NCBI GenBank assembly: GCA_045546255.1
Contig: JAZQCK010000038.1
Coordinates: forward strand, 1,613 to 65,612
From: Lachnospiraceae bacterium
Lineage (GTDB): Bacteria; Bacillota; Clostridia; Lachnospirales; Lachnospiraceae
Direction of reading: 5' to 3'
Length of the DNA: 64,000 bases
Part shown: positions 12,759 through 51,922 of the stretch, piece after piece
Numbering within the stretch: the stretch's first letter is position 1
Layout: every line of letters starts with the position of its first letter
The notes under the pieces: model-generated
The model's input: the letters and a program-made list of their open reading frames with translations, nothing else
The model's database searches: none
What the model was told of the DNA's origin: nothing
Translations under genes and position numbers: made by a program

Positions 12759-13031
12759 TTAGTCTTTTTTGAAAAGGCCACCGATTTTATCGCCGAGTCC
12801 GCCAACCTTGTCACCGATGTTTTCGATGATATCAATTTTGCCGTCATCATCTTTATCCAAGTCAATTTTCCCTTTTATTCCGTCAACGATGCCTTTCAGC
12901 TGCTCATCCGGAAGATTAACTCCGATGATGCCTTCAACAGCCTTAACCGGGTCCTCTTTAAATTTTGCGGCGAGTTCAGGATCACCTTTTACCTTTGCCA
13001 ATACCTCATCAACTTTCGCTTTGATATCCAT
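12759..13031 (-). CDS. hypothetical small acidic protein
   Basis: Start set at MDIKAKV with AAGGAG 8 nt upstream. Repetitive DK/GG-rich tail. Confidence 0.5.
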   Translation of the reverse strand: MDIKAKVDEVLAKVKGDPELAAKFKEDPVKAVEGIIGVNLPDEQLKGIVDGIKGKIDLDKDDDGKIDIIENIGDKVGGLGDKIGGLFKKD

Positions 13032-13128
13032 AATACGACTCCTTTCCCTCATTTACTCCTAAGATAGGATCAACGATCATATCTTAATTGTTATTTTAAA
13101 ACTCTGCGCTGGTTTTTCAACTTTTTTG

Positions 13129-13158
13129 TTGTATATTCTTTTCTTTTGGTAGTATACA
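13129..13158 (+). promoter_or_regulatory. candidate promoter of peptide-mRNA module A (TTGTAT-N18-TATACA)
   Basis: The same sequence and spacing are conserved upstream of modules B and D. The spacer is suboptimal, so this is tentative. Confidence 0.35.
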
Positions 13159-13213
13159 ACTATTTTATCTGTATACGTTTGTTAAATATTTAGAAAAATC
13201 TAAAATAATAACT

Positions 13214-13481
13214 GGTGCTGCCTTAGCACGGTAGGTGGTTAGCCCTCCCCTCGGAGGGACTGTGACCCTCCGCTTATATAGAGTGATCTTGTGAAAGGAG
13301 GGCTAAGCCAATGAACGTAATTGACATAATTGCTGTGATCAGTTTTACACTGACATGCTTTCTTGCCGGTTACAGCATCGGCAAAAGATAGTAGTAAGAC
13401 ACAGAAATGACCGCCCCCTGCTCGGATGGCGGTCATTTCATTTTTGACCATAATCAGGGCTAACCGTCTATCGGCAGCACC
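13214..13481 (+). ncRNA. structured small-peptide transcript (type I toxin-like mRNA), module A
   Basis: 5' arm GGTGCTGCC..GGTTAGCCC is complementary to 3' arm GGGCTAACC..GGCAGCACC, which is followed by T5. Contains a perfect hairpin at 13252-13272, an anti-SD TTAGCCCTCC matching SD GGAGGGCTAA, and a GC hairpin at 13404-13439. Confidence 0.5.
13311..13391 (+). CDS. 26-aa hydrophobic peptide MNVIDIIAVISFTLTCFLAGYSIGKR (toxin-like)
   Basis: GGAGGG lies 8 nt upstream. Compared with the paralogue at 51275 there are 5 synonymous and 2 conservative codon changes. Confidence 0.55.
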   Translation: MNVIDIIAVISFTLTCFLAGYSIGKR

Positions 13482-13489
13482 TTTTTCGT
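13395..13489 (-). ncRNA. predicted antisense sRNA of module A
   Basis: Inferred from the consensus promoter at 13496-13524 and from the shared hairpin followed by a T-rich tract on the minus strand. Ends are approximate. Confidence 0.4.
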
Positions 13490-13495
13490 ATCTAA

Positions 13496-13524
13496 ATAAT
13501 ACTTTTATATCAGTGATAAGTCAA
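13496..13524 (-). promoter_or_regulatory. sigma-A-type promoter TTGACT-N17-TATTAT directed into module A
   Basis: Identical hexamers and spacing occur at the same relative position in modules B and C. Confidence 0.6.
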
Positions 13525-13525
13525 G

Positions 13526-14029
13526 TTAGGCTGTTCCCAGTTCTGTATATATCATCCCGTGTTTTCCTCGGTCGGAGCGCATGAGGGAAACGTTCTCCAC
13601 AAACATGCTGGCGACCGGAGGTCTGACAACTTCCACCGCCGTTTGATCCAGAAACTCTGCACGGCGGATCAGTGTAATATGTGGAGAAAACTTCTTTCGG
13701 TCGTAAGGGATGTTGTGCTCTGCCAGTGCCCTTCGGAGGCTCTTTACATAATGGTCCAGTTCCGGGGCCGGCTGAACCCCCACCCAGAACAAATCATGAA
13801 AATGGCCGACGCCGGAGAGATTCAAGTCGAAGGGTTCCAGTGTGATCGTTTCCATAACATCCAAAACAGCATTCGGATCTTTATACTCTCCAATAAAAGC
13901 AAGCGTCAGATGCAGGTTTTCCATGCGGGTGAAGCGCCCGTTCACGCCTCGATTCCTAAGGTCGCTTTGGAATCTCCTTAGCTCCCGTTTGATTTCATGA
14001 TCAAATTGGATCGCGATAAAAAGTCTCAT
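13526..14029 (-). CDS. thpR: RNA 2',3'-cyclic phosphodiesterase (2H phosphoesterase)
   Basis: Two HxT/S motifs (HLTLAF, HITLIR), 167 aa. Confidence 0.8.
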   Translation of the reverse strand: MRLFIAIQFDHEIKRELRRFQSDLRNRGVNGRFTRMENLHLTLAFIGEYKDPNAVLDVMETITLEPFDLNLSGVGHFHDLFWVGVQPAPELDHYVKSLRRALAEHNIPYDRKKFSPHITLIRRAEFLDQTAVEVVRPPVASMFVENVSLMRSDRGKHGMIYTELGTA

Positions 14030-24197: not shown

Positions 24198-24974
24198 TTA
24201 GTTGTCCAGCACGTGGCCGTCACAGCTGATGGTAACAACCTGATACTGTAACACTTTTCCGCTGGCTTTCAGTGCATTCTCTGCAGCTCTTTGAAGTCCG
24301 CCGCAGCAGGGCACTTCCATGCGGACGAGCGTCACACTCTTAATATCGTTTTCAGAAAGGATTGCAGTCAGCTTTTCCGTATAGTCAATATCATCGAGTT
24401 TCGGACAGCCGACCAGCGTGATCTTTCCTTTCATGAAATCCTCATGCATGCCGGCATAGGCATACGCGGTGCAGTCCGCCGCGATCAGGAGTCTTGCGCC
24501 GTCAAAGAACGGAGCTTTTATAGGCAAAAGTTTGATCTGGCATGGCCACTGATTCAACTGAGAAGCCGGTTTATAAGAATGTGCCGCCTCCGGTTCAGCT
24601 GCTCTTTCAAACTGCTTCATCGCAGAACCCGGGCATCCTCCTGAATACGGCACGGTCTGCGCAGCTGCTGCTCTTTCAAACTGTCTCATCGCAGAACCCG
24701 GGCATCCTCCGGCTGGAGCAGCAGCGGCTTGCTGCTTTGCCTGCTTTGCTGCTTCCACTGCAGCCTCATCATATGCCGGTGCTTCCCGCTCTTCAAACGT
24801 GATGGCGCCGGTCGGGCAGTTCGGGAGGCAGTCGCCAAACCCATCGCAGAAGTTTTCACGCACCAGTTTTGCTTTGCCGTCCACCATATCAATCGCGCCC
24901 TCGTGGCACGCACTTGCACAAAGACCACAGCCGTTGCACTTTTCTTCGTCTATATGAATTATTTTTCTGATCAT
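24198..24974 (-). CDS. 4Fe-4S dicluster domain protein with a Cys-rich C-terminal domain
   Basis: CNGCGLCASACHEG and CDGFGDCLPNCP motifs. C-terminal CPKL...VPCCGG. Confidence 0.7.
   Translation of the reverse strand: MIRKIIHIDEEKCNGCGLCASACHEGAIDMVDGKAKLVRENFCDGFGDCLPNCPTGAITFEEREAPAYDEAAVEAAKQAKQQAAAAPAGGCPGSAMRQFERAAAAQTVPYSGGCPGSAMKQFERAAEPEAAHSYKPASQLNQWPCQIKLLPIKAPFFDGARLLIAADCTAYAYAGMHEDFMKGKITLVGCPKLDDIDYTEKLTAILSENDIKSVTLVRMEVPCCGGLQRAAENALKASGKVLQYQVVTISCDGHVLDN
24598..24710. repeat. 69-bp in-frame tandem duplication inside the 4Fe-4S gene
   Basis: The 44-nt core gctgctctttcaaactg[c/t][t/c]tcatcgcagaacccgggcatcctcc occurs at 24598 and 24667. It encodes GGCPGSAM(R/K)QFERAA twice. 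Confidence 0.8.
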
Positions 24975-40964: not shown

Positions 40965-41356
40965 ATGTCTTCTCTTTCTTCATAAAAATATCTGCCGCAA
41001 TCATAACAAAAATGAATATTGTTGACAATTTTCCAAAAAACAAATTGCTTTTAACTACAATTAAGGCTCCCTTTTTATAATCCCCTCAAAAGTTGAAACA
41101 AATGAAAGGAGTTACAAAACTATGACAGGAAATACATTATGTCTTCAGAATATGAATGAATATAGAACTGGTGTCTTCACCGAAAGAAAAAGCAAAAGCA
41201 AGGCGAAGATTGCAAGCAAAAACAAGGACTCTCGCAAGCAAAGATATTTCTGCCTTCCAGGCCAAGACGAAACGACATTAACAGAACTGCTGCTGATCAC
41301 GCAGTACCGATTCTTTAGAGGTTAATATATCATTTTCATTTCTCTCCCTTTCCAAA

Positions 41357-41386
41357 ACAAAACTCTGCACTATTGCAGAGTTTTGT
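41357..41386. terminator. hairpin ACAAAACTCTGCA/TGCAGAGTTTTGT at the left border of module B
   Basis: 13-bp stem with T-rich flanks on both strands. An analogous GC-rich hairpin lies at the left border of module D. Confidence 0.5.
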
Positions 41387-41416
41387 TTGTATATTTCACT
41401 TTTTTGGTAGTATACA
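41387..41416 (+). promoter_or_regulatory. candidate promoter of module B (TTGTAT-N18-TATACA)
   Basis: Same hexamers and spacing as module A. Confidence 0.35.
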
Positions 41417-41472
41417 CAGTTCTTTTATGTATACGTTTGTCGAATATATTACCGGATGTTACCATGATTTTT

Positions 41473-41794
41473 GGTGCTACCTTAGAACGGTAGGCGGTTA
41501 GCCCTACGTTGTACGCTATTACACTAAGCCTCAACTTTGTTTCGGCAAGTGTAATATGTGTCCCTACGGAGGGACTGTGACCCTTCGATCAGATAGAGAA
41601 ATCTTGAGAAAGGAGGGCTGCGATATGACAGTGATTGATATTCTGACTATTATCACGTTTGTCGTTGATATTTTTGCTGCAGGATTCGCTGTCGGCAGAT
41701 ATATTGAAAAACACAGAAATGACCGCCACTCGATAAAGTAAGGCGGTCATTCTGATCACTTTCTAATTCGGGCTAACCGTCTATCGGTAGCACC
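41473..41794 (+). ncRNA. structured small-peptide transcript, module B
   Basis: The 5' arm GGTGCTACC..GGTTAGCCC pairs with the 3' arm GGGCTAACC..GGTAGCACC, which is followed by T6. The G-to-A change relative to module A is compensated by C-to-T. An extra hairpin is inserted at 41517-41555. Confidence 0.5.
41625..41741 (+). CDS. 38-aa peptide MTVIDILTIITFVVDIFAAGFAVGRYIEKHRNDRHSIK (toxin-like: TM helix plus charged tail)
   Basis: GGAGGG lies 7 nt upstream. The N-terminus is homologous to the module A/C peptides. The track ORF 41556-41741 is the same frame with a spurious 5' extension. Confidence 0.5.
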   Translation: MTVIDILTIITFVVDIFAAGFAVGRYIEKHRNDRHSIK

Positions 41795-41807
41795 TTTTTT
41801 ATTTTCT
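41705..41807 (-). ncRNA. predicted antisense sRNA of module B
   Basis: Promoter at 41814-41842. Hairpin at 41716-41752 followed by TGTGTTTTTC on the minus strand. It would overlap the last 37 nt or so of the peptide ORF. Confidence 0.4.
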
Positions 41808-41813
41808 AAAAGT

Positions 41814-41842
41814 ATAATAAAGTGACAGAGACAGAAAGTCAA
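41814..41842 (-). promoter_or_regulatory. sigma-A-type promoter TTGACT-N17-TATTAT directed into module B
   Basis: Identical to modules A and C. Confidence 0.6.
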
Positions 41843-41854
41843 GCTACCCACTCG

Positions 41855-42988
41855 TCAGTACCGATTATGCACTTTCTCGGCAAAGCACATCAGGTCTTTG
41901 ATCTGCACAACAGTGCCGTCGTCTAAGATGGCCTTGCCGTTCATCCTGCCAAACACCTGATGCTGGTCAGAAACCAGAACTTTAAAATCTAGCTTTGCAG
42001 CGCGGTCTAATACCGGTGTGAACTCCGTCTCGAAGCGACCGTCCGAAGAGGTGAACGTCCATGGATCCATATAGCCACTCTCCGGAATATGGAACGTGAT
42101 GTCATCGAGCTTATGCACCACGCCGTTATAAAAAAGTACATTCTCTGTCGCAGCCTTCGTGTTGCCAAAGCCGTATCCAATGTTGAAACCAAAAGCATTG
42201 CCGTTGATGTCCTGGTTGCCGGATCCCCAGTACCAGGTGTTATCATAGGTCCAAACGCCGCGTCCCCAATCCAGCGTCCCAAAGTCCGTCTGCGGATCAA
42301 ACTCATACCGCACACCGTCATACTCCATATAGCCGGACGCACGCATGCAGTTAATTTTCTGATTATAATAAAAGGCGTGCTTCTTGTCCCACGGCGTCGC
42401 GATCACCATGGAGTCCATCGTCGGCTGCTCCAAAACAATGTCGCAATCGAAGGCCTTGCCCTCATAAAAACGTTCAAAGTGGCAGGTGATGTGGCGCGTC
42501 CCCTCTTCAACAGCAAAGCACATCTGCAGCCGCTTGTCTTTATACTCGGTAACACCGGCCGAAGAATCGGATGGCAACTTCAGCTTTCCCATTGGAAAAG
42601 CATTCAGCACCGTCTCCGTATGCTCCCATGGCTTCCCGGCAGACTTTGTTTCATCAGCATTCTGCGATTGCCCGGCAGACTTTGCTTCATCAGCATTCTG
42701 CGATTGCCCAGCAGACTTTGCTTCCCCATCTGTCCCATTTGCACCATCAAAGCACAGGAGCGACACTGACTGCAGCCCGATATAGCCGTCGTCGGAAATC
42801 GTAAACGCCCCGGCGAACTTTTCATTCAGAACAAGATAGTAATCCCATTCCTTAATCCGCATCTTTGGCGCCTTGATTTGCGCCCGGTCATATTGCTGCA
42901 CCAAGGAGCGCGACCATCCGGGCTCCCGAAGCTCGCCCTCGCTATTCAGCAGCGGCTGCCTATTCACAACTTCATGATTCCTTGCCAT
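41855..42988 (-). CDS. DUF2804 domain protein with an inserted low-complexity repeat
   Basis: Start set at MARNHEVVNRQPLLN with AAAGGAG upstream. The 47-aa 5' extension in the track runs into the tandem array. Confidence 0.7.
   Translation of the reverse strand: MARNHEVVNRQPLLNSEGELREPGWSRSLVQQYDRAQIKAPKMRIKEWDYYLVLNEKFAGAFTISDDGYIGLQSVSLLCFDGANGTDGEAKSAGQSQNADEAKSAGQSQNADETKSAGKPWEHTETVLNAFPMGKLKLPSDSSAGVTEYKDKRLQMCFAVEEGTRHITCHFERFYEGKAFDCDIVLEQPTMDSMVIATPWDKKHAFYYNQKINCMRASGYMEYDGVRYEFDPQTDFGTLDWGRGVWTYDNTWYWGSGNQDINGNAFGFNIGYGFGNTKAATENVLFYNGVVHKLDDITFHIPESGYMDPWTFTSSDGRFETEFTPVLDRAAKLDFKVLVSDQHQVFGRMNGKAILDDGTVVQIKDLMCFAEKVHNRY
42638..42727. repeat. 36-bp x2.5 in-frame tandem repeat inside the DUF2804 gene
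   Basis: ggcagactttg[t/c]ttcatcagcattctgcgattgccc repeated. Encodes (KSAGQSQNADE[A/T])n. Confidence 0.8.
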
Positions 42989-43004
42989 CCGTCGCTCCTT
43001 TCTG

Positions 43005-43377
43005 CACGTTTTCATGCATTTCATACTCTCCGATGCACGTTTTTGGCGATTGTGCCTCCTCCGCTTTTTGTTTAAAGCTAGAGTCCTCAACCCCTTAGCA
43101 GTCACAACCGCGATTTTCGTGCATTTCACTTACCCAGATGCACGTTTTTGGCGGTTGTGACTCCTCCGCTTTTTGTTTAAAGCTAAAGCCCCCGAGACCC
43201 CAACAGGCACAACCGCGATTTTCGTGCATTTCACTTACCCAGATGCACGTTTTTGGCGGTTGTGACTCCTCCGCTTTTTGTTTAAAGCTGGAGCCCTCGG
43301 GACCCCAACAGGCACAACCGCGATTTTCGTGCATTTCATACTCCCAGATGCACGTTTTTGGCGGTTGTGACTCCTTC
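43005..43377. repeat. 105-bp tandem repeat, about 3.5 copies, each with a long imperfect hairpin
   Basis: ATGCACG recurs at 43033, 43138, 43243 and 43348. The unit contains CACAACCGC...CGTGCAT..ATGCACG...GCGGTTGTG. Confidence 0.85.
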
Positions 43378-51215: not shown

Positions 51216-51451
51216 CGGAGGGACTGTGACCCTTCGATCAGATAGAGAAATCTTGAGAAAGGAGGGCTTAGCCAATGAATGTAATTGACATAATAGCTGT
51301 GATCAGCTTTGCGCTGACCTGCTTCATTGCCGGTTACAGCATCGGCAAAAGATAATCCATAAATACACAGAAACGACCGCCATTCCTGAATAAGATTGCG
51401 GTCGTTCTGTGCCAAAATATCAATTCGGCCTAACCGTCTATCGGTAGCACC
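51216..51451 (+). ncRNA. structured small-peptide transcript, module C (5' arm missing)
   Basis: Hairpin at 51216-51236, SD GGAGGG at 51261, hairpin at 51370-51407 with a compensated T-A to C-G change, and 3' arm GGCCTAACC..GGTAGCACC. Confidence 0.45.
51275..51355 (+). CDS. 26-aa hydrophobic peptide MNVIDIIAVISFALTCFIAGYSIGKR (toxin-like)
   Basis: Paralogue of the 13311-13391 peptide. The differences are mostly synonymous. Confidence 0.55.
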   Translation: MNVIDIIAVISFALTCFIAGYSIGKR

Positions 51452-51462
51452 ATTTATCTTCT
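51360..51462 (-). ncRNA. predicted antisense sRNA of module C
   Basis: Promoter at 51469-51497 and a shared hairpin followed by TGTGTATTTAT on the minus strand. Ends are approximate. Confidence 0.4.
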
Positions 51463-51468
51463 AAATGA

Positions 51469-51497
51469 ATAATAAGATGAGAGCGGCAGAAAGTCAA
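51469..51497 (-). promoter_or_regulatory. sigma-A-type promoter TTGACT-N17-TATTAT directed into module C
   Basis: Identical to modules A and B. Confidence 0.6.
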
Positions 51498-51756
51498 GCC
51501 AGCCACTATCCACAAAGCCGAAACACGTTATAACCTAAGTTCACAATTTTTCCTTTTTTGCTTTAAGGTTCGTCAAAGTTTCAAAAGATATTATACGCAC
51601 ATAGAAAACAAGCGGGGCGCGGAGTCAATCCCCTCTCAACAAAAGCCTCACGCGCTCTGTGACCTACCAATATCGTGCGATACGCACTTACAATTTTATA
51701 GATTTTTCATTTCTCTCCCTTTTCAAAGCAAAGGCCCCGCAGATGCGGGGCTTTTG

Positions 51757-51898
51757 TTGTATACTTCGATATTTTGGTAGTTTACACCACTCTTTTATGT
51801 ATACGTTTATCGTGGATGTTTTTGCAGCAGGAATCGCTGTTGGCAGATATATCGAAAAACACAGAAATGACCGCCACTCGATGCAGTAGGGCGGTCAC
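51757..51898 (+). other. degenerate module D: promoter region fused to the 3' half of a module-B-type peptide ORF plus the hairpin
   Basis: TTGTAT..GTTTAC..GTATAC promoter block joins directly to ..VDVFAAGIAVGRYIEKHRNDRHSMQ* and the GAAATGACCGCC/GGCGGTCAC hairpin. It has no SD, no start codon, no 3' arm and no antisense promoter. Confidence 0.6.
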
Positions 51899-51922
51899 TA
51901 TCCGCAAAGCTGCAGAAGCACG

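Follow-up and report, generated by a model that had tools for sequence, protein, structure and literature searches.

The DNA considered here is a 64,000-nt stretch (hereafter, the window) of contig JAZQCK010000038.1 from a Lachnospiraceae bacterium (GenBank assembly GCA_045546255.1), and the element in question, module A, occupies the intergenic region between two of its minus-strand genes (12759-13052 and 13526-14029, the latter LigT-like). Module A carries a short open reading frame (ORF) for a hydrophobic peptide on the plus strand, embedded in sequence with extensive potential for RNA structure, and a promoter that faces it on the minus strand. It is probably a type I toxin-antitoxin (TA) locus built like the bsrG/SR4 system of Bacillus subtilis, in which an antisense RNA would act by binding the 3′ arm of the toxin mRNA. 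A first-pass annotation of the window had described the component features, namely the 5′ arm, hairpin H, the Shine-Dalgarno (SD) sequence, the 26-aa ORF, a GC-rich hairpin (here termed T), and the 3′ arm with its five T residues, and all of these are present where it placed them, as are the anti-SD and the minus-strand promoter (Table 1).

Table 1. Coordinates of the features of module A (copy A) and of the related copies B, C, and D within the window.
Feature	Position	Strand	Remarks
Leader block (70 nt), copies A; B; D	13116-13184; 41374-41442; 51744-51812		upstream of these copies
Distal promoter-like block, TTGTAT..TGgTAGTAT	13129-13158	+	inside the leader block
Proximal promoter candidate, TTGTTA-N16-TAAAAT	13179-13206	+	end of -10 box 7 nt before 5′ arm
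5′ arm	13214-13245	+	outer strand GGTGCTGCC 13214-13222; bulge/local loop 13223-13229; inner strand GGTAGGTGGTTAGCCC 13230-13245
Anti-SD, TTAGCCCTCC	13239-13248	+	complementary to 13297-13306; overlaps inner 5′ arm
Hairpin H, CGGAGGG-ACTGTGA-CCCTCCG	13252-13272	+	3′ strand forms a second anti-SD
Small hairpin, variable length	13274-13294	+	between H and SD
SD, GGAGGG	13297-13302	+	8 nt before ATG
ORF, 26-aa hydrophobic peptide, MNVIDIIAVISFTLTCFLAGYSIGKR	13311-13391	+	
GC-rich hairpin T, GAAATGACCGCC/GGCGGTCATTTC	13404-13439	+	antisense RNA terminator; partial mRNA terminator, with ATTTTTG after T on the plus strand
3′ arm, GGGCTAACCGTCTATCGGCAGCACC, with T5	13457-13486	+	arm 13457-13481; T5 13482-13486; partner of 5′ arm; target of antisense RNA 5′ part
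Antisense promoter, TTGACT-N17-TATTAT	13496-13524	-	10/12 consensus matches
Predicted antisense (antitoxin) RNA, ~94 nt	13396-13489	-	5′ hairpin mimicking mRNA 5′ arm, then terminator T; both ends inferred
Copy B, complete	41473-41842	+	5′ arm 41473-41504; 62-nt insertion after arm; H 41567-41587; SD 41612-41617; 38-aa ORF 41625-41741; T 41714-41754; 3′ arm 41770-41794 with T6
Copy B antisense promoter	41814-41842	-	
Copy C, without toxin promoter and 5′ arm	51216-51497	+	H 51216-51236; SD 51261-51266; 26-aa ORF 51275-51355; T 51366-51411; 3′ arm 51427-51451
Copy C antisense promoter	51469-51497	-	
Copy D, remnant	51744-51900	+	leader block joined to mid-ORF across ACGTTT(G/A)TCG direct repeat, then hairpin T

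Two of the annotated features required adjustment. The arms had been described as complementary over 9 + 9 bp; the pairing is real, but it extends over 9 + 16 bp, two of these being conserved G.U pairs, and shuffled sequences indicate that zero matches to the arm pattern are expected by chance. The plus-strand promoter had been placed at the distal block, where the motif does exist, but this site sits in a lineage-specific block, and the proximal candidate is the likelier promoter of copy A because, in the wider family of elements, ~7 nt separate the end of the -10 box from the 5′ arm. The plus-strand RNA of copy A (275 nt) folds at -112 kcal/mol (z = -6.7) into a molecule closed by the arms, and the predicted antisense RNA folds as a 5′ hairpin followed by the terminator (z = -3.9). 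The 5′ arm of copy A can form a local hairpin as well (CTGCC/GGTAG). Because the anti-SD overlaps the inner strand of the 5′ arm, it can pair with the SD or, alternatively, with the 3′ arm, and both pairings figure in the mechanism proposed below.

Module A belongs to a widespread family of elements. When the 21-nt hairpin H served as a search anchor, it was matched in 12 viral contigs from IMG/VR and, among genomes, at no fewer than 119 loci. Among the matches listed, the genome loci are mostly from Lachnospiraceae and Negativicutes (Phascolarctobacterium, Anaerovibrio, Schwartzia, and Selenomonadaceae), along with a few from other Clostridia; a few of the taxon labels, attached to metagenome-assembled genomes, probably stem from mis-binning. 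The element often occurs in several copies per genome, its distribution across families is patchy, and it is also found in phages. Searches by blastn with module A and its 5′ arm against phage and plasmid collections returned no real match. One family member (locus L167, 3351-4536) adjoins genes with a faint Zeta_toxin and a clear Virulence_RhuM Pfam match, a neighborhood that suggests a mobile island context.

The layout of the family is uniform: an extended -10 promoter ending ~7 nt before the arm (a plus-strand promoter was found in 85 of 93 loci), a 5′ arm composed of GGUGCUACC, a loop, and GGUAGGCGGUUAGCCC, hairpin H, a variable hairpin, the SD GGAGGG, an ORF of 26-40 aa, the GC hairpin T, a 3′ arm (GGGCUAACCGUCUAUCGGUAGCACC), and the minus-strand promoter. 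The ORF typically ends in TQK, with its stop codon inside an A-run that precedes hairpin T. Approximately 100 distinct peptides were recovered (consensus MLTIEGLIAVLSLCLTCFGLGYAIGSKDNNKTQK), sharing the motif (C/A)F..GY.(I/F)G and each made up of a single hydrophobic helix with a short, basic tail, a build also seen in BsrG. The ratio of nonsynonymous to synonymous polymorphism (pN/pS) lies at 0.32-0.42 for the reading frame itself, compared with 0.9-1.9 for shifted frames, and variation is highest at third codon positions. This pattern of substitution indicates that the ORF is under purifying selection, i.e., conserved as coding sequence.

The first-pass annotation could not place the peptide or the RNA in a named family, and this is borne out by the databases. 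Neither the window peptides nor seven family members scored above threshold against Pfam, NCBIfam, or PHROGs; this includes the Fst and Ldr models of NCBIfam and Pfam and the Hol_Tox model (PF16935), whose 23.3-bit threshold was not reached and for which a profile-profile comparison (hhalign) gave 3% probability. A profile search of 5.8 billion proteins returned 552 clusters (at 90% identity) that are all unnamed or “hypothetical,” none with a Pfam domain. At the RNA level, Rfam models gave zero matches at the gathering score in the whole window and in six related loci, and in E-value mode the region 13100-13560 yielded only noise far below threshold (mir-192, a CRISPR repeat, and OrzO-P). Furthermore, full-text searches of a literature library for the sequence and peptide motifs and for type I TA systems in Lachnospiraceae found no description of the peptide or RNA family, no paper with these motifs, and no account of type I systems in the taxa concerned.

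Comparative evidence for an RNA structure comes from the arms. RNAalifold, run on 81 representatives, predicts a long-range 5′-3′ closing helix of 25 bp (9 + 16) with an asymmetric bulge of 5-11 nt and the two conserved G.U pairs. Covariation was assessed in an alignment of 50 sequences made of concatenated segments (5′ arm through H, SD region, and 3′ arm). The closing helix has 96.2% of its cells paired, and 11 of the 25 pairs are changed on both sides (65 cells); none of 500 shuffles matches any of these measures, and slid controls are 25-49% paired. Within the outer 9-bp helix, six of the nine pairs are changed on both sides, including one that is A-U in 27 sequences and G-C in 17. Since the outer helix covaries and has no other complement in the locus, some mRNA must contain the 3′ arm.

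A different origin for the complementary arms has been weighed, in which they would be inverted repeats of the DNA (a miniature mobile element could end in such repeats) instead of strands of an RNA helix. Inverted repeats do flank a small cassette in many genomic contexts, as that explanation would have it, but the two G.U positions, which would be mismatches in DNA, are kept in 48-50 of the 50 sequences, and G.U-type mismatches outnumber A.C-type ones in the arm pairing; these two properties point to pairing in the plus-strand RNA and not to repeat identity at the DNA level. The asymmetric bulge is also conserved, and conserved promoters lie outside the arms. With this evidence, an origin as DNA repeats is extremely unlikely.

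The anti-SD and the SD likewise stay able to pair (GCCCUCU with GGAGGGC): among 68 variants, each of the six positions in the SD core can pair in 96-100%, and the arm side of this pairing varies between C and U only. Independent evidence comes from two loci that were reached via the peptide and not via H (L167 and L170), which have a compensatory change from C-G to U-A in the anti-SD helix. Their H stem is fully co-varied (CAGAGA/UCUCUG) with the loop ACUGCGA retained, and two arm-anchored loci provide more variants of the H stem (TGGAGGG/CCCTCCA). By computed folds and opening energies, the SD is predicted to be sequestered within the mRNA structure. Separately, the loop of H (ACUGUGA or ACUGCGA) is near-constant even where the stem has wholly co-varied (L167, 2925-2945; L170, 1435-1455; in the window, 13259-13265). 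A consistent pairing partner for this loop was sought and none was found. Pairing of ACUGUGA with the ACACAG that precedes hairpin T was rejected, as many members have CACAA at that position and L167 has neither, and a loop-loop contact between H and T was rejected since the complement is missing in copy A.

The second component, the antisense gene, was evaluated by scanning the 90 nt past the 3′ arm for minus-strand, sigma-70-type promoters with a score of at least 9/13. Such a promoter occurs in 96 of 100 loci, versus 5 of 100 for the plus strand of the same DNA, and 74 of the 96 have a TG-extended -10 box. The -10 box lies 11-17 nt from the arm in one class of loci and 38-46 nt from it in another, and in the second class an extra plus-strand terminator hairpin lies straight after the 3′ arm. 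A putative cis-antisense RNA gene that overlaps the toxin mRNA is thus recognizable in the sequence. Hairpin T would serve as its terminator: with T-runs counted from the GC core (since the A-run and the T-run pair together), about half of the members, copy A included, have both an A-run before T and a T-run after it, and T can therefore end the antisense RNA as well as part of the mRNA. Past the 3′ arm, a separate plus-strand terminator is present in ~30% of loci, and a T-run in most others.

These terminators bear directly on a par/Fst-like alternative, in which both RNAs would stop at T, the mRNA would lack the 3′ arm, and the antisense RNA would act through the terminator overlap and by pairing of GGUUAGCCC with the SD region (GGGCUAA). 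Such a scheme accords with the bidirectional appearance of T (in copy A, ATTTTTG follows it) and with a computed -16 kcal/mol for the antisense 5′ part and the SD region in copies A and C. The same pairing is weak in copy B (-10.7 kcal/mol), however, and the plus-strand terminators and T-runs past the 3′ arm would have little place in it. The outer 9-bp helix covaries with the 3′ arm and has no complement in the SD region, which calls for an mRNA that includes this arm. We therefore consider the par/Fst-like alternative unlikely. A further distinction lies in the geometry of the repeats. The par locus of pAD1 (fst/RNA II) resembles module A in its convergent RNAs, bidirectional terminator, small hydrophobic toxin, and structured, SD-occluding 5′ region, but in par the transcription of direct repeats in opposing directions makes the 5′ ends of the two RNAs complementary, whereas in module A inverted repeats give the two RNAs near-identical 5′ ends, so that the antisense RNA would target the 3′ arm.

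The bsrG/SR4-like mechanism that we favor would proceed as follows. A plus-strand mRNA would start at ~13213 and encode the single-helix membrane peptide of 26 aa. While nascent, it would remain untranslated, with the 5′ arm's anti-SD paired to the SD and the 3′ strand of H as a backup. Those mRNAs that read through T would gain the 3′ arm, and pairing of this arm with the whole 5′ arm (9 + 16 bp) would close a panhandle, draw off the anti-SD, and partly relax the occlusion of the SD. The convergent antisense RNA of ~94 nt, starting from the minus-strand promoter and ending at T, would match the 3′ arm and T with perfect complementarity; at its 5′ end it would copy the mRNA 5′ arm in a version that pairs better, and its binding would displace that arm, which could then fold back on the SD and switch translation off. 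The long antisense/mRNA duplex would presumably be a substrate for RNase III.

Computed energies are consistent with this sequence of events. The GGUUAGCCC(UCU) segment can pair alternatively with the SD or with the 3′ arm, and in ensemble calculations on 75 representatives opening of the SD costs 5.3 kcal/mol with the 3′ arm free and 9.3 kcal/mol with the arm absent or blocked. The shift toward a costlier opening upon loss or blocking of the 3′ arm is seen in 72 of the 75 members. The antisense RNA and the 3′ arm form a duplex of -61 kcal/mol, compared with -44 kcal/mol for the 5′ and 3′ arms, and the full overlap amounts to about -200 kcal/mol.

The direction of this shift also informs a second alternative, which is modeled on hok/Sok or aapA1/IsoA1: the 5′-3′ fold-back would be an inert store of mRNA, and trimming of the 3′ end would activate translation. 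The aapA1 mRNA has a long 5′-3′ closing helix, and such a helix is a hallmark of these systems, which also share with module A successive anti-SDs that block translation during transcription. The hok mRNA has a 5′-3′ fold-back (PMC3834814). In addition, the SD is still paired in the minimum-energy panhandle of copies A and B, which speaks for an inert store. In module A, however, removing or blocking the 3′ arm makes the SD harder to open, the opposite of activation, and its fold-back is computed to relax the SD, whereas in hok/Sok and aapA1/IsoA1 the fold-back inhibits until the 3′ end is trimmed. Their antisense RNAs bind the 5′ leader or translation initiation region, while the antisense RNA of module A, whose promoter lies 3′ of the ORF, is directed at the 3′ arm. 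An inert-store mechanism of this kind appears quite unlikely.

Among known systems, bsrG/SR4 (SPbeta prophage of B. subtilis; Hol_Tox PF16935; RF01412) is the nearest. In bsrG mRNA, helix P1 is formed by nt 1-35 and nt 232-262. SR4, whose sequence complements the 3′ half of this helix, frees the 5′ half when it binds, and the SD helix then lengthens from 4 bp to 8 bp (PMC3834814). The likeness of module A is found in the predicted convergent toxin mRNA and antisense RNA, which would overlap at their 3′ ends, in the long 5′-3′ helix of the mRNA, and in the complementarity of the antisense RNA to the 3′ half of that helix, which follows from the layout of the locus. In bsrG, experiments show that the antisense RNA tightens occlusion of the SD; for the module A family, a shift of about 4 kcal/mol in this direction is computed. 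Moreover, Lys codons and the stop codon fall within an A-run before the antisense terminator (as in the SPbeta locus), and the ~30% of family members with a terminator directly after the 3′ arm recall SL4 of bsrG. The differences are that similarity in RNA sequence is undetectable (RF01412 scores the SPbeta control, L166, at 210 bits and matches none of the module A loci), that the module A family has an extra conserved hairpin, H, with its second anti-SD, that its antisense RNA is shorter (~94 nt, predicted, versus 180 nt for SR4), and that its hosts are Clostridia and Negativicutes, not Bacilli. A stretch of 12 nt (GGGTGCTACCAA) in the SPbeta bsrG terminator (L166, 603-625; CCAGGGTGCTACCAACACCCTGG) also occurs where the family 5′ arm starts, which may be due to chance or may be a trace of common ancestry.

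A link to named toxins is provided by more distant relatives. A search anchored on the 3′ arm added 37 viral contigs in which the same arms, terminator, and promoters surround other hydrophobic peptides and H is absent. Three loci with the arms, terminator, and antisense promoter of module A (L142, L149, and L164) encode peptides that pass the Hol_Tox threshold, as does BsrG, a validated toxin of that Pfam family. These loci link module A through a shared RNA frame to the TxpA/BsrG (Hol_Tox) type of toxin, but the window peptides form a separate, unnamed family with the motif given above; “holin-like toxins” have been equated with the TxpA family (Fozo et al., 2010). A tblastn search against phages with a TxpA query gave no match. 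In the IMG/VR loci L132-L165, the same arms, stop-in-terminator design, and antisense promoter occur with at least three other peptide types, namely MSxYEAL (Hol_Tox), MVTYSDLIQ, and MEQAAYIILIIIF..KKK.

The type I TA reading of the first-pass annotation is accordingly supported by the conservation of the coding frame, the covariation of the closing helix, the pairable anti-SD, the positionally conserved antisense promoter, and the relatives that encode Hol_Tox peptides. Its comparison with hok and Fst needs refinement, as the closest known system is bsrG/SR4. Several observations weigh against a bsrG/SR4-like assignment. The window peptides of 26 aa are shorter than the family norm, with a tail of only KR. 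Within the H-anchored set, covariation of the anti-SD helix cannot reach significance, because the SD is invariant there. As T is bidirectional in about half of the members, many mRNAs may stop before the 3′ arm. Lastly, in the panhandle of copies A and B mentioned above it is the 3′ strand of H that keeps the SD sequestered, and even in the full-length RNA of copy A, 8.8 kcal/mol are needed to open the SD. With these points taken into account, we regard a bsrG/SR4-like type I locus as the probable identity of module A.

The window contains further copies of the element, which the first-pass annotation had counted as three recurrences of the same design. Copy B is indeed complete, and its RNA folds as a closed panhandle (z = -8.1), but copy C is without the toxin promoter and 5′ arm, and copy D is a remnant that lacks an SD, start codon, 3′ arm, and antisense promoter. 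The junction in copy D indicates that it arose by deletion between two copies of the 10-nt direct repeat ACGTTTGTCG; for comparison, this repeat is found in copy B's region at 41434-41443 (leader) and 41655-41664 (inside the ORF). Between copies A and C, seven codons of the ORF differ, five of them synonymously and two conservatively.

Copies A, B, and D are preceded by the 70-nt leader block, which contains GT(A/T)TAC-N14-GTATAC (GTATAC-N14-GTATAC in copy A) and the inverted repeat TTGTATA...TATACAA. The block is absent from the 166 other loci compared and is confined to the window's own copies; a role as an operator or as a second promoter is conceivable. Terminator-like hairpins precede it in copies B (41355-41388) and D (51734-51751).

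The number and state of these copies are also relevant to the function of the peptide. It is conceivable that the element is a gene for a non-toxic small membrane protein with an antisense regulator, and not an addiction or defense module. The window copies do sit among an ordinary chromosomal set of genes (GDSL lipase, LigT, DUF2804, and isochorismatase), and the toxicity of the peptide is something that we infer. A gene of this sort would not, however, be expected from multiple copies with decayed paralogs in one genome, from the patchy spread over families and viral contigs, from the extreme occlusion of translation, or from an RNA frame held in common with BsrG/TxpA-type toxins, and we judge a non-toxic product to be very unlikely.

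Two other repeats occur in the window. A 105-nt unit is present three times in tandem (43009-43375; 85-88% identity) at the 5′ end of the minus-strand DUF2804 gene (41855-43129) and in the sequence upstream of it, and a 44-nt direct repeat of 95% identity is found at 24598-24641 and 24667-24710, with starts 69 nt apart.

Copy C retains the antisense promoter, 3′ arm, and hairpin T, and at locus L135 a complete module is directly followed by an extra unit of T, 3′ arm, and promoter. From their composition, copy C and the extra unit at L135 look like orphan antitoxin genes. Since the arms are near-identical between paralogs, copies without a toxin promoter but with the antisense gene could be orphan antitoxins; the computed duplexes between non-cognate antisense RNAs and mRNAs among copies A, B, and C still reach -100 to -118 kcal/mol. 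We tentatively suggest, as a possibility and not as the expected outcome, that the arms, bidirectional terminator, and antisense gene constitute a portable RNA chassis into which at least four unrelated types of hydrophobic peptide (including Hol_Tox) have been swapped repeatedly, and that the copies without a toxin promoter serve as orphan antitoxins. If this is true, orphan copies such as copy C and the L135 unit could make their host cross-immune to phages or elements that arrive with this chassis.

A shared frame with exchangeable toxins is not a new idea, as antitoxin RNAs of different toxin families in B. subtilis have been found to share sequence and structure (Irnov et al.). While the principle is not new, the family itself is uncurated in Pfam, NCBIfam, PHROGs, and Rfam. 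It comprises an uncurated peptide family (552 clusters) and an uncurated RNA frame that are common in Lachnospiraceae, Negativicutes, and their phages, and it provides a deep natural alignment for the mechanism, experimentally established in bsrG/SR4 (PMC3834814), by which an antisense RNA acting at the 3′ end closes the SD at a distance. This alignment could seed models for Rfam and for Pfam/NCBIfam, which would annotate thousands of intergenic regions that are at present blank.

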